DNA from: Fibrobacteria bacterium
GTDB taxonomy: Bacteria; Fibrobacterota; Fibrobacteria; UBA11236
NCBI GenBank assembly: GCA_025360005.1
Contig: JANYDA010000001.1
Span: 87,144 to 151,143 of the forward strand
DNA: 64,000 bases
Reading direction: 5' to 3'
Shown here: positions 3,623 through 64,000 of the stretch, in pieces
Position numbering within the stretch: position 1 is the first letter of the stretch
Layout: every line of letters starts with the position of its first letter
Program-made: the position numbers and the translations under genes
The notes under the pieces: generated by a model
The model's input: only the letters and a program-made list of their open reading frames with translations
What the model was told of the DNA's origin: nothing
Databases searched by the model: none

Positions 3623-3626
3623 AGGA

Positions 3627-4700: not shown

Positions 4701-4701
4701 C

Positions 4702-35802: not shown

Positions 35803-36498
35803 TTGAAAACCGAGCCGGATGCCACAAGCAAAGCCACTCTACGGATCCTGGTCGTGGACGACCATCCCGTGGTGAGGCAGGGGCTGGTGATGACCTTGGG
35901 CAGGCATCCCGGATTTTCCGTCTGCGGGGAAGCGGCGAGTCTGCCTGAGGCATTGGACGCGATCGCCAAGAACCCGCCCGATCTGGTCCTCTCCGATCTG
36001 GTGCTCGAAGGCGCCAGCGGATTGGACCTGATCAAAGAGATCCGCGCCCGGCATCCCGGCGTACCTGCGCTCATCCTCTCCATGCATGACGAGGAAGTCT
36101 ATTCGGAAAGGGTTTTGCGCGCCGGGGCGCGGGGCTACCTGATGAAGAACGAACATCCCGATCGCATTGTGGAAGGCATCCTCACTGTTCTGAAAGGCGA
36201 AATCGCCATCAGCGAAAAGATGAAAGCCAAGATCCTGGGACGTATGGCCGGAAGCAGGGAAGCGAAGCAGGGCTTTTCCGTGGATCGCCTAACGGATAGG
36301 GAGCTGGAGGTATTCCGCCTAGTCGGCGAGGGGCTTTCCACGCGGAAGATGGCCGACAAACTCTCCCTCAGCATCAAAACCATCGAGGCCCACATCGCGC
36401 ATGTTAAACGAAAATTGGGTACCGAATCGGGAAGGGAGTTGCAATTGCGCGCCTTCAATTGGATAGCCGATTCCGGATCCCGCCGCCCTCCGGTATAG
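35803..36498 (+). CDS. NarL/FixJ (LuxR-type) family response regulator
   Basis: Receiver LRILVVDDHPVVRQGL…LVLSDLVLEG…; C-terminal LuxR HTH LTDRELEVFRLVGEGLSTRKMADKLSLSIKTIEAHIAHVKRKLG. Confidence 0.9.
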   Translation: MKTEPDATSKATLRILVVDDHPVVRQGLVMTLGRHPGFSVCGEAASLPEALDAIAKNPPDLVLSDLVLEGASGLDLIKEIRARHPGVPALILSMHDEEVYSERVLRAGARGYLMKNEHPDRIVEGILTVLKGEIAISEKMKAKILGRMAGSREAKQGFSVDRLTDRELEVFRLVGEGLSTRKMADKLSLSIKTIEAHIAHVKRKLGTESGRELQLRAFNWIADSGSRRPPV

Positions 36499-36582: not shown

Positions 36583-39500
36583 TTAACGCGGCGTCTCCAG
36601 TAAGCCGCAGGTTTCCTCGAACACATCCTCCAAATGCGGAAACATGGCGGCGAGGTTTTCCGTCCGGCCCGATCCGGCTTCCCCTTCCATGGCTTCCAAC
36701 TGCCCGAACATGCCCCTGGCCCCGATGGTCCCGCAACCGCCCTTCATCTTATGCAAGGCTTTTCCCACCTGCCTCCAGCGGGAGGCGTCCAGATCCGCGC
36801 GGAGGGATTCCAAGGAAGTCCGCGTGGTATCCACGAACAGCCGGATCAGGCTCCGCACCATCTCGGAACCCCGGCTTGTCCCGTCGGTCAAGTTTTCCAA
36901 GCGCGCCCAATCCACCATGGATTGGGCGGCTCCGCCATTGCCATCGGATGGCATATCCGATGAGGATGGAGAACCGGGGAACGGCAGGGCATCCGCCTCC
37001 GTCTTGATCCATTTGCGGAGAATCTTGGCGATTTGCTCCAAGGTAAAAGGCTTGGAGATATAATCGTCCATGCCCTCGGCCAGGCAGCGTTCCCTGGCGC
37101 CGTTGACGGCATGCGCCGTCAGGGCGACGATGCGGGTACGCCGTCTTCCGCTTTCCTGCGCCCGCAGCCGCCGGGTGGTTTCGTAGCCGTCCATGACGGG
37201 CATTTGGCAGTCCATGAATACCAGATCATAAGGTCTGGCCAGGGCGGCGAAGAGCGCCGCGGAACCTTCCTGGACGGTTTCCACGTCGCACCCCATCCGC
37301 TTCAGCATGGCGGAAGCCACCGTAAGATTGACGGGGTGATCGTCCACCACCAGGATCCGGGGCGGGAAGGCCCAGTCCGGGGAGATGGAACCGGCGCCGG
37401 CCTTTTCCGGAACGGCAAGGCCTACCCCGTGCCAATCCGGGAGCGCGCAGCGGATGGCGTTGTATACGTCCGAACCGCGCCAAGGCTTGGCCAGGATCCC
37501 CGCCGCTCCCGCGCGGACGAGTCCGGCCCAGCGCGCCTGTGCGAAAAAAGGTAACGTACAAAGTACCGGTACTCCTGCGATACGGGCGCGGGACAGGATC
37601 CGCAGCGTCGCCTCGGATTCGGCCGCCTCCTGAGGCAGCGCCAGGATGGCCAGCGCAACGCCGGACTCCCCCGGAGCGTCCAGGTGGCGCAGCAATTCCT
37701 GGCCATCGGCCAATGCCCGGGTGGCGAAACCGAAGCGCGTCAGGATCGCTTGGGCCTGGGAAAGGGACTCCCCATGGGGTTCCACCATCAAGGCCAGCTG
37801 TTTTTCCCCGTCCCGATCGGCATCGTTCTCCCATCCGCCGCTTGTCCCGCTCTCCCCCAGCCTTACCGTGAACCGGAAACAGGTTTCCTCCCGCGGTTTG
37901 CTCTCCACCCAGATCCTTCCCCCCATCCGTTCGACCAGTTCCTTGCTGATGGCCAGACCGAGTCCGGTCCCGCCCGCCTTGCGCGCCAGCGTGGCGTCCC
38001 CTTGCCGGAAAGGCCGGAACAGGTTCTCCATGGCGGCGGGGGAAATCCCCGGTCCCCGATCGGCCACTTCAAAAAGTACTTCGCAAGCACCGCCGCTTTT
38101 CGCGAGCAGGCTGCTGCCGATGCGGATGGTTCCCCGATCGGAAAACTTCACGGCATTGCCCAGCAGGTTCATGAGTACCTGTTGCAGGCGCACGGGATCG
38201 CCGATCACGCGCGCGGGGATGGCCGGATCCGGCTTGACGGCGATTTCCATGCCTTTCTTCTGGGCCATTTCCAAGACCGACGTGAAGGCGCCTTCCACCA
38301 CCGCATCCAGGGAGAACTCGCTGGAATCCAGATCCATGCGGCCGCTTTCCAGCTTGGAGAAATCCAGCACCTGGTTGATGAGCGAAAGCAGATGGTCCCC
38401 GCTTTCCCTGCCGGCCCGCGCATAAGTCTGCTGTTCCGCGCTTAACTCCGTATCCGACAGCAAGGACATCATTCCCAATACCCCGTTCAAGGGGGTGCGG
38501 ATTTCATGGCTCATATGGGCCAGGAATTCCGACTTGGCATGATTGGCGGCTACGGCCTCCTTTTCCGCCGCGGCCAAGGCCGATTGCGTGGCTTTCTCAT
38601 GGGTCAAATCGATGGCGACGATGAGGTATCTTTCCGATTCGTCCACATGGGCCACGCCGCGATAAACCGGCACCGTCGAGCCGTCCTTCCTGCGGTAGCG
38701 GGTTTCCTGCGGATCCATTTTCCCGGTATTCCGGACGGAAACCTCCACTTCGGCATATTGCCGTTTCAGCTCCGGGACATGGAGCGATTCGGCGGTAACC
38801 TTTCCCGCTTCCAGTTCCTGCCGCGTATATCCGGTCAGATCCAAGTACGCATCATTGGCTTCCTCGAATACCCTGGACTTATTCATAACGGCCATGCCGA
38901 CGATGTTGGAATCGAACATGTTCTTGAAACGGGATTCCACCACCCGCAATTCCGCCTTGGTCCGTTTCAACTCGTTGGTATCCAGGACCATGCACAGGGC
39001 GTTCCCATTGCCTTCCATCTTGGTGGCGAAGAACAGAGTATTCAAGCGGGCGCCGTCCCGCAATTGCCATTCCCGATCGAAAGGCCCCATGCGTCCCGTT
39101 CGCTGGAACTGCCCGCGGCGCGCCTCCGCCCCGTCCGCGTACTCCGGAGTGGCCATGGCGGCGGTGTAGATCAATCCCGCCTCCAATTCGGGGCGGGTAT
39201 GCCGGATCATGGCGAGGAAGGTATCGTTCGCTTCGGTGACTTGCCCGCGCAGGTCGGTGACGAAAATACCTATCAGCGTGCTGGACAGGAGATCGCGGTA
39301 GCGCGAATCGCGCAAGCGCAATTCCCGCCGGGCGTGCTTCAATGGGCCTATGTCCATCACCATGCACAGGGCCCGGTCCGGTTCCTCCATCAGCGAAGCA
39401 TAGGCCAGGCTGCTGAATACCCTGCCGTCCCGCAAGGTCCAGTCCCGCTCGAAGGGGCCGATCTGCCCATCCAGCCGGAAACGCGCCGCGTTGGCCTGGG

Positions 39501-40662
39501 CCTGCCCCAGGCCTTCCGGAGTGGTCATGCTGTACATATCGATTTCGCCTTGGGCCAAATCCTCCCGGGTGTATCCCATCATGGCCAGGAAGGTTTCGTT
39601 CGCCTCCTGGACCTTGCCTTGCAAATCCGTAACGTAGATGCCGATCAATTTGCTGTTCCACAAGCAGCCGTAGCGCGATTCACGGCTGCGCAGGGCGGCT
39701 TCCGTGCGCCGCTGGCTTTGAATGAGGGCGGCCGGAACCAAGGAACAGAAGGCGGCGGCATATGGGAATACCTGCATGGAGACCAGCATCCCGGAACCCG
39801 GTTCCCCGCCCAAGGCGAAAGGCCCTTGGCCGCGGCTGGTGAACCAGGCCGTGATCACATAAACGCCCAGTTGCACCGTGGTCGCACCGCGCGCTCCGAA
39901 GCGCAGGGCCGCCCACACCAGGAAGGGAAAGGCGATGTACGGCATCGGCCTGCCCAATGCGGACCAGAGGACGGCAGGGCGGGCGAAAGTCACGTAGGCC
40001 ATGAACAAGGCTGCGGCGGTCCCGGCCGCGAACTCGGCGCTGGACCACTTCCTCCTTTCCCAACGGAAGCCGCCATGCAGCCAGGCCAGCATAACCGGCG
40101 TAGTCACCGCCAAGCCTGCCGCATGGGTTACCAGCCAATTCCCGCATTGACGGGCGATGCCGCCGCCGTAAAAGAGGGAAGCGGTGACCCCGCCGATGGC
40201 GGCGGAAACTCCCGCGCTGCCCAGGCAGACTATTGTGAAGAAGCGGATGGTACCCGGGAGGTTACCCAGAAAGGCGGAGCCCCCCGGAAGCCCTTTCACA
40301 AGGCGGAAGGCCGCGGCCACCTCCGCGATGTTGGCGAGGGTGAAACCCAGGCTGGGAAGCACGGTTTTGCCATGGAACAGATTGGCTGAGAAAAGCGCGA
40401 GCGCGCTCATGCCCAAGACGGCCCGGCGCCAGGGCGGCGGGCAGCGGAGCAATACCGCAAGGAGGAAACCGTTGCCGGGCCAGAAAACGGAAACGGAATC
40501 CGGACCCCGGGCGAATAACATGCTGGCGGCGATGAAGGCCAGGTAGAGGCCGGCCAGGCCGCCAATGGCCGCGATGTCTTTGAAAGCCTGCGATCCGCGC
40601 CCCTGACCCGTTTGCTTGGCTATTGCCGGATCCGTTCCATCTTCATTGATAGGCTTATCCAT
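36583..40662 (-). CDS. Hybrid sensor histidine kinase: MASE1 membrane sensor + four PAS + HisKA/HATPase + two receiver domains + C-terminal Hpt
   Basis: 1359 aa. Polytopic N-terminus (MASE1-like). Four PAS-like repeats (…LIGIYVTDLQGKVQEANETFLAMMGYTREDL… and similar). H-box AHMSHEIRTPLNG. HATPase G-boxes. DDHPVNL… and …VDDHPVNLTVASAMLKRMGCDVETVQEG…FMDCQMPVMDGYE receiver domains. Terminal Hpt with HKMKGGCGTIGA. Confidence 0.9.
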   Translation of the reverse strand: MDKPINEDGTDPAIAKQTGQGRGSQAFKDIAAIGGLAGLYLAFIAASMLFARGPDSVSVFWPGNGFLLAVLLRCPPPWRRAVLGMSALALFSANLFHGKTVLPSLGFTLANIAEVAAAFRLVKGLPGGSAFLGNLPGTIRFFTIVCLGSAGVSAAIGGVTASLFYGGGIARQCGNWLVTHAAGLAVTTPVMLAWLHGGFRWERRKWSSAEFAAGTAAALFMAYVTFARPAVLWSALGRPMPYIAFPFLVWAALRFGARGATTVQLGVYVITAWFTSRGQGPFALGGEPGSGMLVSMQVFPYAAAFCSLVPAALIQSQRRTEAALRSRESRYGCLWNSKLIGIYVTDLQGKVQEANETFLAMMGYTREDLAQGEIDMYSMTTPEGLGQAQANAARFRLDGQIGPFERDWTLRDGRVFSSLAYASLMEEPDRALCMVMDIGPLKHARRELRLRDSRYRDLLSSTLIGIFVTDLRGQVTEANDTFLAMIRHTRPELEAGLIYTAAMATPEYADGAEARRGQFQRTGRMGPFDREWQLRDGARLNTLFFATKMEGNGNALCMVLDTNELKRTKAELRVVESRFKNMFDSNIVGMAVMNKSRVFEEANDAYLDLTGYTRQELEAGKVTAESLHVPELKRQYAEVEVSVRNTGKMDPQETRYRRKDGSTVPVYRGVAHVDESERYLIVAIDLTHEKATQSALAAAEKEAVAANHAKSEFLAHMSHEIRTPLNGVLGMMSLLSDTELSAEQQTYARAGRESGDHLLSLINQVLDFSKLESGRMDLDSSEFSLDAVVEGAFTSVLEMAQKKGMEIAVKPDPAIPARVIGDPVRLQQVLMNLLGNAVKFSDRGTIRIGSSLLAKSGGACEVLFEVADRGPGISPAAMENLFRPFRQGDATLARKAGGTGLGLAISKELVERMGGRIWVESKPREETCFRFTVRLGESGTSGGWENDADRDGEKQLALMVEPHGESLSQAQAILTRFGFATRALADGQELLRHLDAPGESGVALAILALPQEAAESEATLRILSRARIAGVPVLCTLPFFAQARWAGLVRAGAAGILAKPWRGSDVYNAIRCALPDWHGVGLAVPEKAGAGSISPDWAFPPRILVVDDHPVNLTVASAMLKRMGCDVETVQEGSAALFAALARPYDLVFMDCQMPVMDGYETTRRLRAQESGRRRTRIVALTAHAVNGARERCLAEGMDDYISKPFTLEQIAKILRKWIKTEADALPFPGSPSSSDMPSDGNGGAAQSMVDWARLENLTDGTSRGSEMVRSLIRLFVDTTRTSLESLRADLDASRWRQVGKALHKMKGGCGTIGARGMFGQLEAMEGEAGSGRTENLAAMFPHLEDVFEETCGLLETPR

Positions 40663-54928: not shown

Positions 54929-56043
54929 CCCCCAAAAAACTCTGGTTGATTTTGCTGGGCGCCTTGGCGTCATCGGCGGCGGCCGCGGAAGATTCGGCGT
55001 GGGTGCAAATTTTCAACGGCAAGGATATGTCCGACTGGGATATCAAATTCCAACATCATCCTCTGAATGAAAATTTCCGCAACACCTACAAGGTGGTCAA
55101 TGGCCTCTTGACCGTCGACTACGGCGCTTGGCCGGACTTTCCCAGCTTCGGCCATGCGGCTTACAAGGTGCGGCCTTTCACCCATTACCTGTTGCGGTCC
55201 GAATACCAGGTGTGGGGAAAGCAGGCTCCGGGAGGCCCCGGTTGGGCCGTGGAGAACAACGGTTTCATGCTCCACTCCCAATCCATGGCGAGCATGGGCC
55301 TGGATCAGGACTTCCCCATCAGCCTGGAAGCCCAGCTATTGGGCCCCCACAATGGTTCGGGCTCGCCGAATGCCAAAGGCACCATGAATCTGTGCACGCC
55401 CGGCACGGCCTTCTATACCACGCCCAGCGGCGGCAGCGTTGTGACCAGCCATTGCCTGTCGGCGACGGCGAATCCGCGCGCTCCCGTGGATACGGGGTGG
55501 GAACGGGTTTCGGCGCTGGTGCTCGCGGATTCCCTGCTCCAGTTCCGAGTGGACGATAAATCCGTGCTGGAATTCTACCGGCCGGTCTATTGGAAGGGGA
55601 ATGTGTCCGGAGATACCCTCCATGCCCCCGCAAACGGCACGCCCTTGACCGGCGGATATATCACCATCCAAGCGGAAAGCGCGCCTTACCGGTTCAGGAA
55701 AATCGAAGTCTTGAATCTGGTGGGCTGCATGGATAAAAAGTCTCCCGCCTACCGCTCCTATTTCGTGAAAAATGATCCGGCCGCCTGCTCGGCCACGGTC
55801 TTGGATGCGCCGGGGGCATCCGCCTCCTGGGGCCTCAGCATGGAAGAAGATGCGGACGGCATCTCCCTGCGCGGATCCCAGGCCGGCATCCTGGAATTGC
55901 GTGCGCTTTCCGGAGCCATCCTGCAACGCTATCCGGAGGCGCAATCCTTCCAAAGGCATATCCGGCTTCCTGGCCGGGGAGTGTACCTGATAACGTGGAA
56001 AACCGGGCGCGGAACCTGGATTAAGAAGTGGGGAATGCCATGA
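54907..56043 (+). CDS. DUF1080 (3-keto-disaccharide hydrolase-like) secreted protein with sorting-domain-like tail
   Basis: …WVQIFNGKDMSDWDIKF…ENNGFMLHSQ…GWERVSALVLADSLLQFRVDDKSVLEF…GYITIQAESAPYRFRKIEV is the classic DUF1080 jelly-roll. Signal peptide. Confidence 0.8.
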   Translation: MSQNKRLAPKKLWLILLGALASSAAAAEDSAWVQIFNGKDMSDWDIKFQHHPLNENFRNTYKVVNGLLTVDYGAWPDFPSFGHAAYKVRPFTHYLLRSEYQVWGKQAPGGPGWAVENNGFMLHSQSMASMGLDQDFPISLEAQLLGPHNGSGSPNAKGTMNLCTPGTAFYTTPSGGSVVTSHCLSATANPRAPVDTGWERVSALVLADSLLQFRVDDKSVLEFYRPVYWKGNVSGDTLHAPANGTPLTGGYITIQAESAPYRFRKIEVLNLVGCMDKKSPAYRSYFVKNDPAACSATVLDAPGASASWGLSMEEDADGISLRGSQAGILELRALSGAILQRYPEAQSFQRHIRLPGRGVYLITWKTGRGTWIKKWGMP

Positions 56044-56924
56044 AGTATTCGATGAACATGTTGCTATGGAGCGATTGCGTTCTGGAGGAAAAATATTTCC
56101 CTCTCTTTGATCGGCTTAAGGAAATGGGATTCGACGGGATTGAAATCCCCGTTTTCGATCCGCAACCGGATAAATACGCGGCCCTGGGCCGGAGGCTGGA
56201 CGCCGTGGGATTGGAACGCACGGCGGTAACGGTAGCCGGTCGGGAAGCGAATCCCATCAGTCCTGATCCCGCCAACCGTAAACGCGCGGTGGAAAACCTC
56301 AAGAAAGTATTGGACTGCTGCCAAAGCGGCGGGATGGAGATATTGGTCGGACCCTACTATGCCGCCATCGGCGAGTTCACGGGCCAAGCGCCCACCGGGG
56401 ACGAATGGAAATGGGGATTGGAAAGCATGCGGCAGGTAGCGGAGTACGGGCGGAAACTGGGCGTAGGCCTGGCGCTGGAATTCCTTAACCGCTTCGAGAT
56501 CTATTTCCTCAACTGCGCCGCCGATACGGACCGGTTCGTCCGGGAAATCGGCATTCCAGGCTGCGGCAGCCTCTACGATACTTTCCACGCCAACATCGAG
56601 GAAAAATCGGCCTCCCTTGCCATCGAAAAAATCGCGGGAACGTTGCGGCAAGTGCATATCTCCGAAAACGATCGCAGCACCCCGGGACTAGGAAACGTAG
56701 CCTGGGAGGAAACCTTTCTTTCCCTGCAGCGGGTGGGGTATGATGGCTGGCTTACCATCGAAGCGTTCGGCATGGCCATGCCCGCCTTGTCGGCGGCGAC
56801 CAAGATTTGGCGCCGGATGTTCCAGGACGAAGAGAAGCTCGCCAGGGACGGCCTGGCCTTCATGAAAAAAATGGCCGCGGGCGGACCCGGAAGGAGCGCC
56901 CTTTTGGAAAAGCCGCTCCCCTGA
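56040..56924 (+). CDS. Sugar phosphate isomerase/epimerase (xylose-isomerase-like TIM barrel)
   Basis: …FDGIEIPVFD…GLALEFLNRFE…HISENDRSTPGLGNVAWEETFLSLQRVGYDGWLTIEAF… ATGA overlap with the DUF1080 stop. Confidence 0.85.
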   Translation: MKYSMNMLLWSDCVLEEKYFPLFDRLKEMGFDGIEIPVFDPQPDKYAALGRRLDAVGLERTAVTVAGREANPISPDPANRKRAVENLKKVLDCCQSGGMEILVGPYYAAIGEFTGQAPTGDEWKWGLESMRQVAEYGRKLGVGLALEFLNRFEIYFLNCAADTDRFVREIGIPGCGSLYDTFHANIEEKSASLAIEKIAGTLRQVHISENDRSTPGLGNVAWEETFLSLQRVGYDGWLTIEAFGMAMPALSAATKIWRRMFQDEEKLARDGLAFMKKMAAGGPGRSALLEKPLP

Positions 56925-56944
56925 AGGGGTAACGGGTACTTTCA

Positions 56945-57412
56945 TCACCCGGGATTCCCATGGGATTTGTCGATGCTTGCTTGCACCATGCCCAGGAAAT
57001 TCGCAACGTCCACGCTCAGGAAAGGTTTCGCGAAAAGGCCATCCATCCCCGCTTTCATGCAACGATCCCGGTTTTCCTCCATCGCATCGGCCGTGACCGC
57101 GAAAATGGGAATCCGCTTTCGGCCCAGGAGAATTTCTTTTTTCCGGATCGCCATGGTGGTTTCGTAGCCATCCATGCCGGGCATCTGGCAGTCGAGTAAA
57201 ACGGCCGCGATGCCTCCCTGGTCCAGGAGTTCCAGGGCTTCAGCGCCGTCTTGGGCTATCTTCACGGACCAGCCCTGTTTCTGGAAAAGCATGGCGACGA
57301 TTTTCTGGCTCAAATAATTGTCTTCAGCCAGGAGGATTGTCTTTGCGACTGAGGAAGGCAACGCTGCAGAGGAGGACGCCGGCATCCGTTTGGAATCACC
57401 CTGGTTTTCCAC
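56945..57412 (-). CDS. Single-domain response regulator (CheY-like receiver)
   Basis: …TILLAEDNYLSQKI…AVLLDCQMPGMDGYETT…KPF… Divergent from the hybrid HK operon. Confidence 0.85.
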   Translation of the reverse strand: MENQGDSKRMPASSSAALPSSVAKTILLAEDNYLSQKIVAMLFQKQGWSVKIAQDGAEALELLDQGGIAAVLLDCQMPGMDGYETTMAIRKKEILLGRKRIPIFAVTADAMEENRDRCMKAGMDGLFAKPFLSVDVANFLGMVQASIDKSHGNPG

Positions 57413-57785
57413 TCTGACCCCGCTCCGATTCCGGATCCACCCGAAGGCAATAAAAGCTTAGCGCTATTGAGGGCTATTGCGCATCATCCAGCGATCCCGC
57501 GCCACCGGTTCCGAGCCGCGCATCCGATACCCCGTCACCGAATTGACGAAGATAACTCTACCCGCATCGCATCACAATTAATTCCCGCATTAAACTGGGA
57601 ATGGGAAAGTACAATCCGCACAGCGCGGAAAAAACCGTGCACTTTGTGCGTACCAAAACCCTATCCCGCAGAGGTTTTCGCAGAGGCAAATGAGGGAACA
57701 TATGTTACACCGATGACATTTACAAATCATTGATTGAGGTAGGCGTTGCGCGCCCCAAACCGTTGCCACGCTCCGGGAGCATTGA

Positions 57786-60158
57786 ATGGGTTTGTTCCGC
57801 ATCCTTCGATTCCAGGATCCCGCGAATCCCTCGAGGACTCCCCTTCCGGTAAACTTGGAAGGCATACCCTGCGAAGTCACCCATGTGGAAACCACGGCCG
57901 CATTCGAGGACGCGCTATCCCGGGGCTTCTTCAACCTGATACTATGCGAAGACGGTATTCCCGGGGGATGGGGGGATACCCAGGCAAAGCGGGTGTTTTC
58001 CACCGGCAAGGCCCACAGCGGCGGGGTACGCTGGCGGTTGCGCGGCGAAACGGAGTTCCGTTGGTCCTACTTCAAATCCGTCCCCATCCTGAACGGGGAT
58101 GGCAGCATCGGAATGGTGATTAACACCAGCGTGGACATCACCGAACTTAAAAAAAGCCAGCAGGCGCTCGAAGAGAAGGAGCGCTTCTTCGCCATGTCCT
58201 TGGACATGCTGTGCATCTTGGGTTTCGACGGCCATTTCAAGCAGCTGAATCCCGCTTGGGAAAAATGCCTGGGTTGGAGCAATGAGGAAATGCTTACCCG
58301 CCACAACAGCGAACTCATCCATCCGGAGGACAGCGAGCAGACGCTGGAAGCGGCGCGCAAGATGTTCCAGGGCGAAACCCCGATTTCATTCGAGAACCGC
58401 TACCTGTGCAAGGACGGGACCTACAGGTGGCTGCAATGGAACTCCACCGCGCATATGGAGGCCAAGGTGATTTTCGGCTTGGCGCGGGATATCACGGACC
58501 GAAAGCGCATTGATCAGGAGATCCTCAAGGCCAAGGAAAAAGCGGAGGAATCGAGCCGCGCCAAGGGCAGGTTCCTGGCCAATATGAGCCATGAAATCCG
58601 CACGCCCATGAACGGCATCATGAGCATGGCCGGATTGCTGGCGGATATGGACTTGGATGAAAAGCAAAAGCATTTCGTACGCATCATCCAGACTTCCGGG
58701 AATTCCCTGCTGCGTATCATCAACGACGTTCTGGATTTTTCCAAAATAGAACAAGGGAAGCTCCAGCTCTATGAAAAGCCGTTCCACCTACCTGAAACGG
58801 TTTCCGACGTGGTAGCGCTTTTGGAAACCCAGGCGGAGGAAAAGGGCTTGGATCTAAGCTGGTCGTTCGCGCCGGGTATGCCCAACAGCTATCAAGGGGA
58901 TGCGGGGCGGTTGCGGCAGGTCCTGATCAACCTGCTCGGGAATGCCATCAAGTTCACGCTCAAGGGGAAGGTGGATCTTCGCGTAATGGCATCCGCTCGG
59001 GGGGACGATGGGGTGCTGCTCCGATTCGAAATCGAAGATACCGGTATCGGGATCAATTCGGAGACGGAGGCCAAACTGTTCCAGGCCTTTTCGCAATCCG
59101 ATACTTCCGACACCCGGCGCTTCGGCGGCACTGGATTGGGATTGGCGATCTGCAAACAACTGGTCGGATTATTACGGGGGGAAATAGGATATGCCAAGCG
59201 GTCGGGACAGGGCAGCATCTTCTGGTTCACGGCGCGCATGGGCATCCATGATCCGAAAAAGGACGTGGATCCCCGGGTGCGGGCGCAGCCTCTTCCGCCG
59301 GCGCCGGAAAACCTTCCCCCCCTGAAAATCCTGGTGGCGGAAGACAACAGGATCAATCAAATGGTGGTCCTCAGCCTGTTGGAAAGGCTGGGGCAGCGCG
59401 CTGATCTGGCGGTCAATGGCCGCCAAGCGCTGGAGGCCTGCCACCTCCAGGACTATGATCTCATCTTGATGGACTGCCAGATGCCGGAGATGGACGGCTA
59501 TACGGCATCCAACAGTATCCGCCATCTGGAAAGGAAGAATCAAAAGAAGCGCGCATTCATAGTAGCCATGACCGCGGACGCCCAAACCGGTACGCGGGCA
59601 AGATGCGAGGCCGCCGGCATGGACGGCTACATCAGCAAGCCCATCATGACCCAATCCCTCCAGGAAGCGATCGCGAAAACGTATTCGGGAACGGAGCAGG
59701 AGGAATTCCACGGTAAACCCGATGAAAGCGAAGTCCCGTCCGCCGCGGATGATTTGGACCAGCGCATTCTGAACCGGCTCCGGGCCCTTTCCGAGGATGA
59801 TGAAGCCGGAATGTTCCTGGAGTTGGTCTCCGGCTTTCTGGAGCAATCGGCGGAGAAAAGCGCGGAACTGAAAAGGCTTCTGGGCGCACAGGATTATCCC
59901 GCCCTGGGAAAGGCGGCGCATGGGTTGAAAGGACTGAGCCTGAATTTCGGGGCCGCGGCCATGGCCAGGAAATGCGATTCGCTTCAGTCCGCGGCGAAGA
60001 TCGAGGACAGGCAAAGCGCTCTGGAAATCCTCTCCGGATTGGATGCCGCTTTGGCAAGGACGCGCGTCGCCCTATCCGGTCTCTCCGGCCTGGGCGGGCA
60101 GGGATGGGATATTTCAACGCCGGCTTCGCAACCGGAGAAAAGAGAGGCCGATGGCTAA
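57786..60158 (+). CDS. Hybrid sensor histidine kinase: PAS + HisKA/HATPase + receiver + Hpt
   Basis: PAS region; H-box ANMSHEIRTPMNGIMSMAGLL; G-boxes …EDTGIGI…GGTGLGLAICKQLV…; receiver ILVAEDNRINQ…LMDCQMPEMDGY…; C-terminal Hpt …GKAAHGLKGLSLNFGA. The first ~60 aa of the track ORF may not be translated. Confidence 0.9.
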   Translation: MGLFRILRFQDPANPSRTPLPVNLEGIPCEVTHVETTAAFEDALSRGFFNLILCEDGIPGGWGDTQAKRVFSTGKAHSGGVRWRLRGETEFRWSYFKSVPILNGDGSIGMVINTSVDITELKKSQQALEEKERFFAMSLDMLCILGFDGHFKQLNPAWEKCLGWSNEEMLTRHNSELIHPEDSEQTLEAARKMFQGETPISFENRYLCKDGTYRWLQWNSTAHMEAKVIFGLARDITDRKRIDQEILKAKEKAEESSRAKGRFLANMSHEIRTPMNGIMSMAGLLADMDLDEKQKHFVRIIQTSGNSLLRIINDVLDFSKIEQGKLQLYEKPFHLPETVSDVVALLETQAEEKGLDLSWSFAPGMPNSYQGDAGRLRQVLINLLGNAIKFTLKGKVDLRVMASARGDDGVLLRFEIEDTGIGINSETEAKLFQAFSQSDTSDTRRFGGTGLGLAICKQLVGLLRGEIGYAKRSGQGSIFWFTARMGIHDPKKDVDPRVRAQPLPPAPENLPPLKILVAEDNRINQMVVLSLLERLGQRADLAVNGRQALEACHLQDYDLILMDCQMPEMDGYTASNSIRHLERKNQKKRAFIVAMTADAQTGTRARCEAAGMDGYISKPIMTQSLQEAIAKTYSGTEQEEFHGKPDESEVPSAADDLDQRILNRLRALSEDDEAGMFLELVSGFLEQSAEKSAELKRLLGAQDYPALGKAAHGLKGLSLNFGAAAMARKCDSLQSAAKIEDRQSALEILSGLDAALARTRVALSGLSGLGGQGWDISTPASQPEKREADG

Positions 60159-60531
60159 AAAGGGACGGGTTCTGGTGATTGATGATGAAAAATTGATCGT
60201 CAAAACCACATGCATCCTCCTGAGGCATTTGGGGTACGAGACCCTGGAGGCTTACGGCGGCGAGTCGGGATTCACCATGGCCAAGGAAGGTAAGCCCACG
60301 CTCATCCTCCTGGACCTGGTGATGCCCGGCATGGATGGCTGGGAGGTATTGCGGAAACTCCGGGCGGATCCCGAAATGGCGAATGTCCCCGTGGTGATTT
60401 TCACCGCGAAGGAATACGCCAACGCCGAAGTGGTCGGCAACCTGCAAGGCGCCATCGGCCATATCGGAAAGCCCTTCGAGCCCGAGGATTTGGAAGAGGT
60501 CTTGCGGAAAATAGAGGGCGGCGATGCCTAA
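60151..60531 (+). CDS. Single-domain response regulator (receiver only)
   Basis: MAKKGRVLVIDDEKLIVK…LILLDLVMPGMDGWEVL…GKPF. The start overlaps the hybrid HK stop by 8 nt. The track ORF 60043-60531 extends upstream of the likely ATG. Confidence 0.85.
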   Translation: MAKKGRVLVIDDEKLIVKTTCILLRHLGYETLEAYGGESGFTMAKEGKPTLILLDLVMPGMDGWEVLRKLRADPEMANVPVVIFTAKEYANAEVVGNLQGAIGHIGKPFEPEDLEEVLRKIEGGDA

Positions 60532-61603
60532 TCCCATGATAGTCGACTATGAGGGACTGAAGAAAATCCTCGATCAGTTTTCCTGCGGCGTTATCCTTGC
60601 CGGCGAGGACGGCGAAATCCTGGTTTGCAACGGCAAGGCTCCCGCGTTGTTGCAAACCGATCCCATCGACCTGATGGAAAGAGGGGTGGCTGCCGCGCCC
60701 GCCTGGTCCGGCCTGGCATCCGCGATCCGTTCCGCCTGCCAAACCCAACAGCTCCGGCAATCGGTGGAAGCGTCCCATGACGGCAAGCGCTTTTCCATTA
60801 CCGTGGTGAGGGACGGCCTCTGCGTTTACGGCAAGGCCTGCATTGTGGCCATGATTGACGACATCACCCGCCAGAAAGATCTCGAAGAGTTATGCTCGGG
60901 GTTCTTTTCCGAATTTCTAAGGCGCATAAAAGGCCCGCTGACCTCGGTGAAAACCGCCTTGTCCGTTCTCAGCTCGGACCAATACGCTTCCCTGGACACC
61001 GAGGCGCGCGAAGTGGCCAATCTTGGCCATGAAGAAGTACGCCGTCTGCACGCGCTACTGTCCGACATGGGGGATCTTTTCGCCCTGGACAGCCCTAACG
61101 CGGCCACGGATCTTTTTCTGGAGAACGTCGAGGTCCGCTCCGTCATTAACCGTTGCTTGCGCCGGGTGCAGAAGGGGCCTCACGGGCTGGACCGCAGGAT
61201 TGCGATTGCTTTGCCGGAAGGCGGGCCGCCCTTGTGTCTGGTGGCCGACTACGAAAAACTGGGGTTAGTCCTTTACCATCTTCTGGAAAATGCCTTGGCT
61301 TATTCTCCCGCTTCCGAGGCGGTGTACATCAAGGCCGCCCAGGCGGAAGGCATGATCGAGATCCGTGTCGAGGATCAGGGGATCGGGATCTCCCCTGCGG
61401 ATATGCCGCAGGTTTTCAACCGGTTTTTCCGGTCCTCCGATCCCGCGGCCGCCAAATCGGAAGGGGGCGGCCTGGGGCTGTTCCTGGCCAGGGGCTTTAC
61501 CCGGCTCATGGGCGGCACGCTGGTGCTGGAAAGCCGGCTTGGGAAGGGCACTACTGCGGTGATCCGCCTTCCCCGCCCCACCGAGGGGGGATGGATAGAA
61601 TGA
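60524..61603 (+). CDS. Histidine-kinase-like protein with intact HATPase_c but lacking the conserved phospho-acceptor His (candidate pseudokinase)
   Basis: PAS-like N-terminus. At the H-box position the sequence reads FFSEFLRRIKGPLTSV (60911-60943), where the SHELRTPLT consensus has become LRRIKGPLT with His replaced by Arg. N-box HLLENALAY; G-boxes DQGIGI…GGGLGLFLARGF… 8-nt overlap with the upstream RR. Confidence 0.65.
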   Translation: MPNPMIVDYEGLKKILDQFSCGVILAGEDGEILVCNGKAPALLQTDPIDLMERGVAAAPAWSGLASAIRSACQTQQLRQSVEASHDGKRFSITVVRDGLCVYGKACIVAMIDDITRQKDLEELCSGFFSEFLRRIKGPLTSVKTALSVLSSDQYASLDTEAREVANLGHEEVRRLHALLSDMGDLFALDSPNAATDLFLENVEVRSVINRCLRRVQKGPHGLDRRIAIALPEGGPPLCLVADYEKLGLVLYHLLENALAYSPASEAVYIKAAQAEGMIEIRVEDQGIGISPADMPQVFNRFFRSSDPAAAKSEGGGLGLFLARGFTRLMGGTLVLESRLGKGTTAVIRLPRPTEGGWIE

Positions 61604-63438
61604 AGGAAGGGGGCGAGGCCGACGACTTGATGCAGGGGCTTCAGGAGGAAATCGATCGGCTGGAAAAACTTCGGCATGTGGCGGCGATGGAGGAAAAGCC
61701 GGCGGGGCCGGCCAACCCCGATCGGGAAACGGTTTCTTGTATCCACGTGAAGGACGGCGGTTCCCTCAACCCCTCCTTTCTTAAAGGGATCGAGTTCGCG
61801 CGCCTGACCGTGGAATATAAACTTGAAGCCCTGCTTCCCTCCCAATTCCTTTTCCTGGCGGAAGTGGAAAAGGACGGAGTGATAGCCAACCGGGATAACC
61901 GGAGAAAATGCGAGCTGAGTCCCGGGGAAAATATTTCTTCCCGTATCGTAGCAGGCCTGGAAAGGTATCAGGCCAAGGTACGGGGACGGGTGATTGCCAT
62001 CGGCGATCAATTCCACATCCTTCCCTCGGACGTGGACGGAAAGATGGTTTCCCGGAAGGATGCCACGAATTTATCCGCCTATCTCGACGTCTACCCCGCT
62101 TTCGGCAGCGGACGCGTGACCGATTTGGCGGCGGTCAGGGAATTCCTGGAAAAGAACAACATCCGCTACGGCATTCGGGAAGGCGCGATCCTGGAAGCGC
62201 TCGAAAGCTGCGGCAAAACCCGGAAGCCCGTCAAGGATGTGCTCGTCTCCAAAGGATTCCCACCGGTGGACGGAAAACCCGGTTCCATCGAATATCTCTT
62301 CGATCGGAATTTCCAAGGTCCCCTGCACCTTGATTTGAACAATGAAGGCAAGGTCGATTTCCGGAACGTGAAATGGATTCCGGTGGTGACCCAGGATCAG
62401 TTGCTGGCGCGCATCACCTCCGCCGTTCCCGGTACCGATGGCGTGGACGTTACCGGCCGCAGCCTGCCTCCCAAGCCGATCCCCAAGTCCTATTTGGTAC
62501 CCGGTAGAAACGTGCGCACGGAGAAGGAGGAAACCGAATTCTATTCGGAAATCAACGGGTGCGTGCAGCTGAACGGATCCCTGCTGGACGTCATGAACGT
62601 CTTCGTGGTCAATTCGGATGTCGATTACCATACCGGGAACATCACCTTTGAAGGCAATATCATGATCACGGGAAGCGTGCGCAAAGGGTTCGAAGTAGCG
62701 GCGGATGGCGATATCCTGGTTCTGGAAAACGTGGAACCCTGCAAAGTCAAAGCCGGAAGGGACATCCACGTCAAGGGCGGCGCCCTGGGCGCGGGCAAGG
62801 GCCAGTTCCGGTTGGAGGCGGGACGGGACATTTCCGTGGGGTATTCGGAAAACGCCTGGCTCGAGGCCCATGGAGACATAGTAGTGGAAAACTTTTCCCT
62901 GCAAAGCTTCCTGTATTGCAGCGGCCGGATCCTCCTGGAGAAAAAAAAGGGGTCTTTGTTGGGCGGCGAAGCCATCGCCGCCAAGGGCGTCGAAGCCAAA
63001 TCCTTCGGGTCATCCTCGGGAATCAAAACCCACGTGGCCACCGGGGTCGATTATGCCCTCAAACGCCAGCAGGCATCGCTTGCGCGCCAGGCTTCCGAAT
63101 TGAATGAGGCCATGGCCAAGATCGATCGGTTCCTCCGTTCCCTGCTCGAGCTTTCCAGCCGCGGCGCCCTCCATCCTTCCAAAGCGCAAGCCCTCAAGGA
63201 GATCGTGGAAAAGCGCAGGCAGATTTCCAAAGCCCATGCGGCCATCACCACGCGAAGCCAGGAATTGGAATACCAACAGGAAAACCTGGAGCCGGGCCGG
63301 ATAAAAGCCATTGAAATAGTCCACCCGGAAGTATTCATTTCCATCCGCGGGCGGACCGTTAAGGTGGTAGAGTCCCACTACCGATCGCTTTTCCGCCTGG
63401 ACGAGAAAACCGACCAGATCATACGCGGACCCGCCTGA
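61600..63438 (+). CDS. FapA/DUF342-family protein (N-terminal FapA domain, beta-helix repeats, C-terminal coiled coil)
   Basis: The track ORF starts at 61153 in a frame overlapping the HK-like gene; the likely start is MKEGGEADD at 61600, an ATGA overlap with the upstream stop. Beta-helix repeat region …DVDYHTGNITFEGNIMITGSVRKGFEVAADGDILVLENVEPCKVKAGRDIHVKGGALG… and a C-terminal coiled coil. Confidence 0.65.
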   Translation: MKEGGEADDLMQGLQEEIDRLEKLRHVAAMEEKPAGPANPDRETVSCIHVKDGGSLNPSFLKGIEFARLTVEYKLEALLPSQFLFLAEVEKDGVIANRDNRRKCELSPGENISSRIVAGLERYQAKVRGRVIAIGDQFHILPSDVDGKMVSRKDATNLSAYLDVYPAFGSGRVTDLAAVREFLEKNNIRYGIREGAILEALESCGKTRKPVKDVLVSKGFPPVDGKPGSIEYLFDRNFQGPLHLDLNNEGKVDFRNVKWIPVVTQDQLLARITSAVPGTDGVDVTGRSLPPKPIPKSYLVPGRNVRTEKEETEFYSEINGCVQLNGSLLDVMNVFVVNSDVDYHTGNITFEGNIMITGSVRKGFEVAADGDILVLENVEPCKVKAGRDIHVKGGALGAGKGQFRLEAGRDISVGYSENAWLEAHGDIVVENFSLQSFLYCSGRILLEKKKGSLLGGEAIAAKGVEAKSFGSSSGIKTHVATGVDYALKRQQASLARQASELNEAMAKIDRFLRSLLELSSRGALHPSKAQALKEIVEKRRQISKAHAAITTRSQELEYQQENLEPGRIKAIEIVHPEVFISIRGRTVKVVESHYRSLFRLDEKTDQIIRGPA

Positions 63439-63510
63439 ATCGATCCGGCGCACCGGTTCCTCAAAGGGAGAGGATGGCGCAGGACTCCCTATTTGAAGCG
63501 CACTACCGCG

Positions 63511-64000
63511 CTACTCCTTCGCCACCTTCACTTGGACGCCACTTTGCCCGGCCACCTTAAGGCGTACGATATAGGTTCCCCCGGGGATTCGCCGGGCCGC
63601 CCAGTTGGTGGTATAGGTCCCGGCTTTTGCGCGCCCATCCAGGATTACCGCCGCCCGGCCGCCCTTTACATCGAATACTTCCAGCCTTACCGCCACCAGT
63701 TCGGTCGCTCCCTTGGGAATGGAATAGGTGATGGCCAGGTTTCCGGAGGAACGGGAAACGCTCAGCCGCGCCCTTTGCGGGCCCGCGCCCGCCTGCGCAT
63801 TCGGCACGATGCCGGTGGTGGAATAGGAACCGGTCAGGAAAACCGAATGCAATGCGGCCAGGTTCAGGCGCACCCTGGTGATGACGGCGCCGCCCTCGGT
63901 CACCTGCGTGTATTCGGGAGTGGATATGGCGCCGGTATGCGGATCCCATTGCTGCGGCGTGAAGCTGCCCCGCAAGCGCGCGAAGGCGTTCACGGTAGCC
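63511..64000 (-). CDS. C-terminal portion of a secreted protein ending in a T9SS-type sorting-domain-like tail (partial; N-terminus beyond the window)
   Basis: …LVAVRLEVFDVKGGRAAVILDGRAKAGTYTTNWAARRIPGGTYIVRLKVAGQSGVQVKVAKE*. The ORF runs off the window end. Confidence 0.55.
   Translation of the reverse strand, partial: ATVNAFARLRGSFTPQQWDPHTGAISTPEYTQVTEGGAVITRVRLNLAALHSVFLTGSYSTTGIVPNAQAGAGPQRARLSVSRSSGNLAITYSIPKGATELVAVRLEVFDVKGGRAAVILDGRAKAGTYTTNWAARRIPGGTYIVRLKVAGQSGVQVKVAKE

Follow-up and report, generated by a model that had tools for sequence, protein, structure and literature searches.

A conserved operon of two-component genes, a His-less kinase-like protein and a long FapA protein in Fibrobacterota-related bacteria

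Results

A tightly packed signalling operon

Four co-directional genes on the forward strand (57786-63438) encode a hybrid kinase, a single-domain receiver, a His-less kinase-like protein and a FapA protein, and they form a real, tightly packed signalling operon. A check of open reading frames and Pfam domains found all the genes and domains of the original prediction in the window (the whole stretch of 64,000 nucleotides that was analysed):

56945..57412, minus strand: divergent stand-alone receiver, 155 aa (Pfam Response_reg, E=8e-23)
57786..60158, plus strand: soluble hybrid histidine kinase with Hpt (partial PAS, PAS, HisKA, HATPase_c, REC and Hpt in Pfam)
60151..60531, plus strand: single-domain response regulator, 126 aa (Pfam Response_reg, 2.4e-22, 79.6 bits)
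60524..61603 (start probably ATG 60536), plus strand: His-less histidine-kinase-like protein, PAS-DHp-CA (HATPase_c, 6.7e-24)
60920..60922, plus strand: codon of Arg133, at the canonical phospho-acceptor His position (alignment to canonical and PDB kinases)
61600..63438, plus strand: long-form FapA/DUF342 protein, 612 aa (FapA 1.8e-62 and FapA_N 8.3e-34 in Pfam)

Start-to-stop overlaps had been proposed at all three gene junctions, and two of them stand. The hybrid kinase and the receiver share 8 nt (ATGGCTAA at 60151-60158, read from the sequence), and this form of overlap, ATGnnTAA/TAG, recurs between the Hpt gene and the receiver at loci L001, L090 and L003. The His-less kinase and FapA share 4 nt (ATGA at 61600-61603), which also recurs in relatives. 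The overlap of the receiver with the His-less kinase (ATGCCTAA at 60524-60531) exists only if translation starts at 60524. It is doubtful, because homologues start with M[IAV]VDYEGL, equivalent to the in-frame ATG 60536 in the window, and have 3-4 nt between the receiver stop and the small-kinase start. The gene probably starts at ATG 60536, and the middle 8-nt overlap may be a 4-nt spacer instead, although a start at 60524 is possible given the AGAGGG found 5 nt upstream of it. Short gene overlaps are commonplace in bacterial operons and unremarkable by themselves. Those seen here point to translational coupling, not the stoichiometric co-expression that had been read from them, and one of the three is in doubt. 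What goes beyond chance is the conserved gene order, found in 24 of the 24 family loci with enough flanking sequence, rather than the overlaps.

The first protein passes as a hybrid histidine kinase with Hpt, having the H box, the N, G1 and G2 boxes, the receiver Asp and the Hpt His in its HxxKG motif. Its five Pfam domains (PAS, HisKA, HATPase_c, Response_reg and Hpt) all score above cutoff, its active residues are H269 (SHEIRTP), D563 of the receiver and H712 of the Hpt (AAHGLKG), and the ATP motifs NLLGNAIKF, DTGIGI and GGTGLGL are all present. No transmembrane segment was found in it, and its NCBIfam matches are TorS/BarA/ArcB-like, all below cutoffs. The L090 orthologue (963 aa, 63% identity) carries about 170 extra N-terminal residues. 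In the relatives of the same form (type A, see below) with enough upstream sequence, the gene at this position always ends in REC-Hpt, and we infer that the hybrid kinase is the phosphate source of the module. The small receiver has a complete active site (D11, D12, D55, T85, K107), which places it among true receivers, and shares 50% identity with its positional counterpart in locus L009 (Raymondbacteria, type B).

The divergent receiver had been counted as part of the unit, but it is absent or different in relatives, with no counterpart at the same position in L090 or in a related JGI contig. Its origin is probably the receiver of a hybrid kinase encoded divergently, of which it would be a remnant or derivative: it shares 61% identity with residues 406-529, the C-terminal receiver, of the 534-aa HisKA-HATPase-REC protein whose gene is divergent in L001.

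A kinase fold without the phospho-acceptor histidine

The third protein lacks the canonical His, as had been predicted. Its LRRIKGPL aligns with the SHELRTPL of canonical kinases, including VicK/WalK-type structures (PDB 4i5s, 4u7n), so that the motif RRIKGPL places Arg133 at the phospho-acceptor position, Arg134 in place of the catalytic acid (H+1) and Gly137 in place of the phosphatase Thr/Asn (H+4). The HisKA match is partial (profile 12-64) and, at 25.5 bits, below the Pfam cutoff of 26.9. Among the traits of HisKA kinases, the protein has the DHp element and a GHKL ATP-binding domain with intact N, G1, F and G2 boxes (HLLENALAYS, DQGIGI, FNRFFR, GGGLGL), and it lacks the His, the H+1 acid and the H+4 Thr/Asn. 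The AF2 model (pLDDT 84) has a PAS domain (9-113), two DHp helices (115-149 and 159-189) and a CA domain (200-350). The best sequence matches among solved structures are VicK/WalK-type kinases (1e-46 to 1e-40); DivL (4q20) matches at 4e-24.

The protein belongs to a family of small proteins with a PAS-kinase fold, known to date from Fibrobacterota-related bacteria. Of 44 representatives (from 1.84 billion proteins), 38 have H at the His position, while R, Q and Y occur in 2 each, and Asp or Glu never follows. Tyr is present in L006, for example. All 17 close homologues of the window protein, and all type-A loci, have R, K or P at this position, and every member of this window clade retains intact N, G1, F and G2 boxes. 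Hence, as in DivL, the kinase fold is kept while the phospho-acceptor is replaced across a whole clade. Phosphorylation of the His looks dispensable in the family, because its position may hold H, Y, Q, R, K or P and is never followed by an acidic residue. In a rough NJ tree the His-less sequences form two groups inside one subclade nested among His-bearing members, and their nearest relatives (P0147, P0163, P0172) keep the His and have degenerate ATP-binding motifs. Either half of the autokinase reaction can therefore be lost within this subclade. Conservation in the family peaks in the DHp helices (mean column conservation 0.57, against 0.46 for CA and 0.34 for PAS), and by this measure the partner-binding DHp surface is constrained. 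The DHp shows no obvious invariant His, Ser or Thr that could serve instead.

A long form of FapA

The DUF342 assignment of the last gene survived the HMM check, with 211.9 bits for PF03961 (FapA; cutoff 31, E=1.8e-62) and 116.9 bits for PF20250 (FapA_N; cutoff 27), and the protein is a member of the family. It is made of an N-terminal helix, an extra beta-rich domain (approximately 45-155), FapA_N, a beta-solenoid, a coiled-coil hairpin and a C-terminal beta domain (AF2 model, pLDDT 82), and in the PDB it resembles only beta-helices in general and the C-terminal part of MinC. Matches to most other FapAs, including those of Firmicutes, begin around residue 140-180, whereas those to the FapAs of the majority form of the cluster (type B, below) begin at residues 49-111. 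The N-terminal helix and the extra domain are covered in matches to FapAs linked to two-component genes.

The cluster is conserved in two forms

Separation of these genes in related genomes was looked for and not seen, down to about 30% identity: the unit is kept together in about 24 related uncultured bacteria. In all 24 loci the small-kinase gene has a receiver gene just before it and a long FapA gene after it; the flanks vary. All the matches to the small-kinase profile of at least 241 bits with sufficient flank have the receiver upstream and FapA, or HDOD and FapA, downstream; generic kinases, at most 207 bits, have neither.

The cluster comes in two forms. Type A (..REC-Hpt / REC / His-less HK / FapA) includes the window (=L089), L001/L002, L003, L090/L091, L092, L097 and one JGI contig. 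Type B (REC-HK / REC / small HK / HDOD / FapA) is the majority form, with about 20 loci in Chitinivibrionales, Raymondbacteria, Chitinispirillaceae and many peat/sediment and other metagenome contigs. Both have orthologous receivers (50%), small kinases (~30-34%) and long FapAs (~30-34%) in the same order, and an H box without an acidic residue after the His position. The differences lie in the His, which type B usually retains and type A has lost; in HDOD, encoded between kinase and FapA in type B and lost from type A; and in the input, which comes from a REC-PAS-HK without Hpt in type B and from REC-Hpt in type A. The window module is a derived form of a wider, undescribed cluster of receiver, small PAS-kinase, HDOD and long FapA. 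It is a self-contained cytoplasmic module, and its host is probably an uncultured member of Fibrobacterota, as judged from one efflux-pump homologue (80% identical, labelled Fibrobacteres) and from the taxonomy of distant relatives of the module. The trio of receiver, small kinase and FapA is invariant across loci, and the least conserved element is the upstream kinase, which is a PAS-hybrid, a REC-hybrid, a type-B REC-PAS-HK without Hpt, or split. In L001, for example, a separate divergent gene encodes the kinase core, and the operon begins with a gene for REC-Hpt alone.

No extra neighbour recurs among the 25 most frequent families listed in a scan of the flanks of 20 loci: each family occurs in at most one flanking ORF. 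Neither these 25 families nor the Pfam lists of about 12 loci contain recognised genes for flagella, the motor or sigma-28, and HubP/FimV was likewise not seen near the window operon. Two Fibrobacter-labelled MAGs, L012 and L013, carry a related REC/HDOD/long-FapA cluster. A functional link from receiver to FapA is supported by the REC-HDOD fusion that adjoins the long FapA in L012 and by receiver genes immediately adjacent to FapA in a number of unrelated genomes (L030, L048, L057, L071). The original prediction that the unit is undescribed agrees with our literature search, which returned no paper describing it; none of the 6 papers in the searched collection that use the word DUF342 deals with two-component genes.

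Discussion

By analogy with DivL, our best reading is that the His-less protein would read the phosphorylation of the receiver and control a FapA scaffold, to which we give a probability of roughly 0.45. A cytoplasmic signal would be sensed by the hybrid kinase through its PAS domain(s), and phosphate would pass from His269 to Asp563, to His712 of the Hpt and then to Asp55 of the small receiver. The phosphorylated receiver would dock on the DHp surface of the His-less kinase, which, able neither to phosphorylate nor to dephosphorylate it, would read its phosphorylation state, as DivL does with DivK~P in Caulobacter. The resulting conformational change, which may run via the conserved D-I-T junction to the PAS domain, would then reach FapA, whose gene is translationally coupled, probably through a direct contact with the N-terminal domain specific to its subfamily, and would alter FapA assembly, location or partner binding. 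The predicted binding of the receiver is indirectly supported by its conserved adjacent gene (24/24 loci) and by the high conservation of the DHp. We infer both the receiver-pseudokinase and the pseudokinase-FapA contacts from gene order, translational coupling and analogy. The conserved core (REC-Hpt, REC, pseudokinase, FapA) is linear, with no sign of the branched phosphorelay originally proposed; the polarity module suggested along with it is a putative role by analogy.

A close parallel is the DivL/DivK/CckA(-ChpT) system of Caulobacter and other Alphaproteobacteria, which also has a hybrid kinase feeding an Hpt step and a single-domain receiver. DivL is inactive as a kinase and as a phosphatase, retains its N, G1, F and G2 boxes and uses its DHp to bind DivK~P (PMC4211667). 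DivL (Tyr) and the window protein (Arg) are both PAS-DHp-CA proteins without the phospho-acceptor His, with the ATP boxes kept and the DHp docking surface conserved. We rejected orthology, given the much better match to VicK/WalK-type kinases (1e-46 versus 4e-24) and the differences in domain count and phylum. The window protein has one PAS domain and DivL several; the window genes are all in one operon, with the Hpt fused to the kinase rather than on a separate ChpT; the partner is FapA rather than the CtrA pathway, and binding of receiver~P is a prediction for the window protein.

The intact ATP-binding motifs throughout the window clade could mean that catalysis is still in use, and the kinase-like protein might be an enzyme whose CA domain phosphorylates something other than its own His. 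The protein might form a heterodimer with another kinase and phosphorylate the His of that partner, in the manner of split or trans-acting kinases. Alternatively, FapA or the receiver might be phosphorylated on a Ser/Thr/Tyr, for which GHKL protein kinases such as SpoIIAB and RsbW are precedents. The tight coupling of the pseudokinase and FapA genes fits this idea, and the first gene of type B (REC-PAS-HK), which matches the small-kinase profile end to end (~150-160 bits), is perhaps a paralogue, making heterodimers conceivable there. Yet, catalytically dead DivL keeps all these motifs too, the close relatives P0147, P0163 and P0172 have degenerate ATP sites, no substitute residue stands out in the DHp, and heterodimers are unlikely in the window clade because its upstream kinase is of a different, hybrid type (SHEIRTPMNG). 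We regard such an activity as rather unlikely. A feedback of the DivL/CckA type, in which phosphorylated receiver and pseudokinase switch the hybrid kinase between kinase and phosphatase states and FapA is a co-localising scaffold instead of the output, seems improbable. The hybrid kinase, single-domain receiver and His-less kinase do match the set CckA, DivK and DivL, and the separation of the L001 kinase core from its REC-Hpt is compatible with it. However, a specific pseudokinase-kinase contact should conserve the type of kinase, which is precisely the most variable element beside an invariant trio.

The original prediction had borrowed from Vibrio a link to the localisation of polar flagellar or chemotaxis assemblies. 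The last gene does belong to the FapA family, and in V. vulnificus HubP recruits FapA to the pole, and flagellar synthesis depends on FapA. Many genomes carry FapA in flagellar superoperons with sigma-28 (PMC11607428). In Firmicutes, FapA lies ~3 kb downstream of receiver and kinase-ATPase matches, taken as chemotaxis genes, and an MCP gene follows FapA in L006. Nevertheless, the flanks examined contain no recognised flagellar gene, the long FapA has an extra N-terminal domain and a genomic context unlike those of flagellar-operon FapAs, and a related cluster occurs in MAGs labelled Fibrobacter, to our knowledge a genus without flagella. Control of flagellar or chemotaxis assembly is thus unlikely, and a non-flagellar scaffold or positioning role is more likely. 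Finally, the His-less gene could be a decaying kinase placed beside FapA by chance, since loss of the catalytic His is expected of a dying kinase and the neighbouring hybrid kinase and divergent receiver look rearranged. The conservation data effectively refute this: the same His-less motif stands in intact full-length ORFs over a range of 100% to 41% identity, conservation of the DHp and ATP motifs is strong, and gene order is kept at all 24 loci with enough flank.

The FapA of V. vulnificus and V. cholerae (VCA1085) has the same FapA_N and FapA Pfam families as that of the window, and in both cases FapA seems to answer to a partner protein that signals through its state of phosphorylation. 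In Vibrio this partner is dephospho-EIIAGlc, which acts in a phosphorylation-state-dependent manner (PMC6877527). Control there comes from the sugar PTS, whereas in the window it would come from a two-component phosphorelay. The window FapA is a long form with an extra N-terminal domain and with no flagellar genes recognised in the flanks examined. Because of the latter, the functional definition from Vibrio (polar localisation, flagellar assembly) should not be transferred to it. The FapAs of flagellar superoperons (sigma-28 / FlgV / FapA sub-module; Borrelia bb0267) are of the same family, but they lie beside flhF, flhG, fliA and flgV (PMC11607428) and match the window FapA only from around residue 140-180, whereas the latter is beside two-component genes only. 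The operon offers a new handle on the poorly understood FapA family.

One might extend the DivL-like reading to the whole small PAS-kinase-fold family, whose members would then, instead of being kinases, sense whether a dedicated receiver is phosphorylated and signal this to long FapA/DUF342 beta-solenoid proteins. FapA proteins would in that case be an output class of two-component signalling not recognised before and independent of flagella. This would also be the first case outside Alphaproteobacteria of a reverse-signalling pseudo-histidine-kinase system that a conserved operon defines. We find this extension doubtful. The His kept in 38 of the 44 representatives may be phosphorylated in most relatives, and DivL-like reading may be limited to the derived clade; the presence of HDOD in type B and its absence from type A suggest that the two forms may work differently. 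Spo0B and ChpT offer another comparison: they have the kinase fold, do not autophosphorylate and take their place in a phosphorelay after a single-domain receiver. They kept the His and lost ATP binding, whereas the window protein is the reverse, with the His lost and the ATP motifs kept. The Spo0B-like pattern of a retained His with degenerate ATP motifs is found in the sister members P0147, P0163 and P0172.

A conserved receiver, small-kinase and FapA cluster

All ORFs and domain calls reported for 56945-63438 were confirmed (ORF check, Pfam), including the DUF342/FapA assignment of the last gene, which holds in the HMM search (FapA 1.8e-62, FapA_N 8.3e-34).

56945-57412, - strand: stand-alone receiver (Pfam)
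57786-60158, + strand: hybrid kinase with PAS, HisKA, HATPase_c, Response_reg and Hpt domains (Pfam)
60151-60531, + strand: 126-aa receiver (Pfam)
60524-61603, + strand: kinase-like protein (HATPase_c 6.7e-24; HisKA partial and sub-threshold)
61600-63438, + strand: FapA protein (FapA 1.8e-62, FapA_N 8.3e-34; Pfam)

The gene order of the window, a gene ending in REC-Hpt followed by a receiver (REC), a His-less kinase and FapA (type A), is common to the relatives' loci L001/L002, L003, L090/L091, L092 and L097 and to a JGI contig, and the flanks of these loci are unrelated on both sides. Relatives at ~30-34% identity have a second, commoner form (type B: REC-PAS-HK / REC / small PAS-HK / HDOD / long FapA), found in MAGs of Chitinivibrionales, Raymondbacteria and Chitinispirillaceae and in numerous contigs from peat and sediment. 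Six-frame searches of 170 fetched loci used home-built REC, HK, HDOD, FapA and Hpt profiles. Small-kinase matches of at least 241 bits with enough flank were directly preceded by a receiver and followed by FapA, or by HDOD and then FapA, in 24/24 cases, a further four such matches ending at contig ends and lying outside this count; kinases at 207 bits or less lacked the receiver and FapA context. The genes proposed to form a unit are therefore kept together in related genomes. No recurrent neighbour was seen around them: of the 25 families listed by Pfam for 44 flanking ORFs of 20 loci, none occurs in more than one ORF.

The clusters vary in composition. Related ones occur in two MAGs labelled Fibrobacter (L012 and L013). 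In L012 (588-4672), a REC-HDOD fusion is followed by a REC protein with a 180-aa C-terminal region and by a 642-aa long FapA, with no small kinase; the layout of L013 is related but not identical. The C-terminal 180 aa of the L012 REC protein were considered as a remnant of the small kinase and rejected (hhalign probability 0.2%). Common to all forms are a single receiver and a long FapA, and the adaptor between them varies. Nine type-B loci (L004, L007, L008, L094, L098, L099, L104, L107 and L109) carry an extra PAS-kinase with its own H box (HDLKKPL) directly after FapA, suggesting that in these lineages the conserved unit extends further. At L006 (4359-12208, a Chitinivibrionales MAG), a chemoreceptor gene (PilJ-MCP-hemerythrin) comes after the type-B cluster, which also adjoins ClpV/TssG/TssF type VI secretion genes; neither set of neighbours was seen at the other loci.

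The nearest named carriers of a related cluster are all Fibrobacterota, and an RND permease of the window shares 80% identity with a protein of a 'Fibrobacteres bacterium' MAG. On these grounds, the window is tentatively placed in an uncultured member of this phylum. The best FapA match among those listed in a scan of GTDB representatives has 32% identity, and a word-indexed search with the same protein, its reach limited by the index, returned 23 relatives.

A family of small kinases with degenerate active sites

The kinase-like protein had been predicted to lack the canonical histidine, and alignments bear this out: the H box SHELRTPL of canonical kinases and of solved VicK/WalK-type kinases aligns with LRRIKGPL, placing Arg133 at the phospho-acceptor position, Arg134 at that of the catalytic Glu/Asp and Gly137 at that of the phosphatase Thr/Asn. 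The HisKA match begins at profile position 12, immediately after the H box. By its sequence, the gene thus lacks the histidine that defines histidine kinases. The ATP-binding site retains its N, G1, F and G2 motifs, and the AF2 model (pLDDT 84) has a standard PAS-DHp-CA architecture. Close homologues are few (~18 among 5.8 billion clustered proteins, 41-100% identity), and all have R, K or P at the histidine position.

A profile search run exhaustively over 1.84 billion representatives placed the protein in a wider family, which we aligned using 43 retrieved proteins of at most 400 aa plus that of the window. The H-box consensus is hLH[RK][LI]R.PL[ST][ST]hKT; an acidic residue never directly follows the histidine position, which is occupied by H in 38 sequences and by R, Q and Y in two each. 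Among the loci, L006 has Y at this position, and L011 and L104 have Q. In a rough neighbour-joining tree of limited resolution, rooted with the type-B first-gene and type-A hybrid-kinase paralogues, the His-less sequences lie in a subclade surrounded by His-bearing members. Within it they are not a single clean clade, because at this resolution two family members, P0146 and P0147, fall between the window's group and the P0007/P0010 group. Their nearest relatives include P0147, P0163 and P0172, which keep the histidine and have degenerate N, G1 and G2 motifs. In these proteins, and in P0146, the degeneration is reversed relative to the window's clade, resembling Spo0B/ChpT. The subclade has therefore lost one half or the other of autophosphorylation in different lineages and kept the fold.

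Mean conservation across the family is highest in the two DHp helices (0.57), followed by the CA (0.46) and PAS (0.34) domains, and at the junction of PAS and DHp, conservation of the Asp (D113 of DIT) reaches 97%. Such a pattern would be expected for receiver binding and conformational relay rather than for phosphotransfer catalysis.

Phosphorelay components and their variants

A motif check found the hybrid kinase complete (H269, D563, Hpt H712, N/G1/G2), and the active site of the receiver at 60151-60531 is complete as well (D11, D12, D55, T85, K107). The H box is SHEIRTPMNG in the type-A hybrid kinase and a canonical AHELRTP in the first gene of type-B clusters. Within type A, the upstream kinase is a PAS-hybrid in the window and in L090, a REC-hybrid in the JGI contig, and is split in L001 into a REC-Hpt gene and a divergent HisKA-HATPase-REC gene. 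Since the upstream kinase varies, the type-A core consists of REC-Hpt, REC, pseudokinase and FapA.

Relative to its 63% identical orthologue L090:6732-9623, the window hybrid kinase (57786-57940 end) lacks ~170 N-terminal residues, comprising two PAS domains. Clear homology begins at residue 52, within a PAS domain, so it is uncertain whether the start is annotated correctly and whether the first PAS is intact. The divergent receiver at 56945-57412 (-) is 61% identical to the C-terminal receiver of the 534-aa HisKA-HATPase-REC protein of L001 (6965-8569, -). The kinase part of that gene is missing here, 373 bp separate the receiver from the hybrid kinase, and the receiver may be a remnant of a rearrangement. 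A single deletion could have cut both genes, but the N-terminal difference is equally compatible with normal variation in PAS number.

The window is rich in two-component genes. A second, BarA/TorS-like hybrid kinase of 1359 aa with multiple PAS domains lies ~20 kb upstream of the operon (36583-40662, -), adjoined by a receiver gene (35839-36189, +).

Gene junctions

Overlaps of 8, 8 and 4 nt had been proposed for the operon. The hybrid kinase/receiver junction reads ATGGCTAA (60151-60158), the receiver/His-less kinase junction ATGCCTAA (60524-60531) and the His-less kinase/FapA junction ATGA (61600-61603). The first and third overlaps are real and recur in relatives: an 8-nt ATGnnTAA/TAG overlap joins the Hpt gene and the receiver in L001, L090 and L003, and ATGA precedes FapA in L001 and L090, the overlap in L003 being 1 nt. 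The middle one is doubtful, because homologues of the His-less kinase all begin M[IAV]VDYEGL, which matches an in-frame ATG at 60536, and start 3-4 nt after the receiver stop; this junction is probably a 4-nt spacer rather than an overlap. With either start, the packing is close enough for translational coupling. Yet short overlaps are an ordinary feature of operons in bacteria, and fixed stoichiometry cannot be read from them alone, so that the stoichiometric co-expression deduced from them does not follow. Another in-frame ATG at 61591, 9 nt 5' of the FapA start (ATGGATAGAATGA), would make the last overlap 13 nt; homologue N-termini and Shine-Dalgarno spacing favour 61600.

Other scans gave little. 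Rfam had no match in 56000-64000, sigma-70 promoter and terminator searches gave sites no commoner than in shuffled sequence and nothing usable, and no hydrophobic segment of transmembrane length occurs in any of the five proteins. In NCBIfam, the FapA protein and the small kinase have no specific model, with generic, sub-threshold kinase and receiver matches only.

The FapA protein

From the N-terminus, the AF2 model of FapA (pLDDT 82) runs through a helix, a beta-rich domain (~45-165) and an alpha/beta region into a beta-solenoid (~305-481), which is followed by a long coiled-coil hairpin (485-561) and a small C-terminal beta domain; solved structures matched it only as generic beta-helices. 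In tblastn searches, matches to Firmicutes FapAs begin at about residue 140-180 and those to type-B FapAs at 49-111. This suggests that the N-terminal domain is particular to the FapAs linked to two-component genes, which makes it the obvious candidate for a docking site. Those Firmicutes loci have FapA ~3 kb downstream of receiver and kinase-ATPase matches, which we take as chemotaxis genes.

Discussion

All components of the operon belong to known families. What is new is that a receiver, members of a degenerate family of small kinases and FapA proteins of a long subfamily are kept in physical linkage, with variants that exchange the HDOD protein for an Hpt-fed, His-less form. We found no description of this linkage in the searchable literature, in line with the original prediction that the combination had not been described as a unit.

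DivL is the textbook pseudo-histidine kinase, and to our knowledge bona fide examples with defined partners are rare. The DivL/DivK/CckA module offers a precedent for the signalling logic of the operon, although the window protein is not a DivL-family member by descent. DivL has all kinase motifs except the histidine and neither kinase nor phosphatase activity; it binds DivK~P through its DHp, and its PAS domains carry the signal 'backwards' (PMC4211667). By analogy, the hybrid kinase would sense a cytoplasmic signal and pass phosphate from His269 to Asp563, His712 and finally Asp55 of the small receiver. The His-less kinase would bind the phosphorylated receiver with its DHp and, being unable to modify it, would report its state. 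The change would then be passed on to FapA and affect the assembly, location or partners of that protein. We tentatively prefer this reading, with a probability of roughly 0.45.

Several alternatives deserve consideration. With its ATP-binding motifs intact, the pseudokinase could still be an active ATP-dependent enzyme with another substrate, which we regard as unlikely. It might instead feed back onto the hybrid kinase as DivL does, with FapA a bystander scaffold; FapA belongs to the type-A core and the upstream kinase is the variable part, and this seems rather improbable. A Vibrio-like flagellar role bears on the output alone, overlapping with the other readings. The FapA of V. vulnificus is polar, recruited by HubP, required for flagellation and sequestered by dephospho-EIIAGlc, as cited in PMC6877527, and in many genomes FapA is part of a sigma-28 sub-module of flagellar superoperons (PMC11607428). 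But no flagellar family is among the 25 listed by Pfam for the flanking ORFs, and we hold such a role to be improbable too. Decay or chance is very hard to reconcile with an order kept at every locus with enough flank.

If FapA receives the signal of the phosphorelay, as in the DivL-like reading, then FapA proteins could be two-component outputs outside a flagellar context, an implication that is also new. DUF342 is scarcely mentioned in the literature searched; as far as we know, the family is widespread and has been studied in functional depth only for the Vibrio protein. The operon would give it a concrete regulatory input and suggests a role wider than flagellar assembly. A pseudokinase system this compact, with four soluble proteins from a single operon, would also lend itself to the reconstitution of 'reverse' signalling via a kinase fold, with the natural variants at the histidine position (H, Y, Q, R, K and P) serving as ready-made mutants. 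The finding is purely genomic, and we see it as a useful lead rather than a surprise.

Elsewhere in the window (2195-6294, +), a DltB-like MBOAT protein is paired with a DltA-like adenylation enzyme, neither of which reaches its equivalog cutoff. The pair is of the D-alanylation type, in a genome that is probably of Gram-negative type and from Fibrobacterota.
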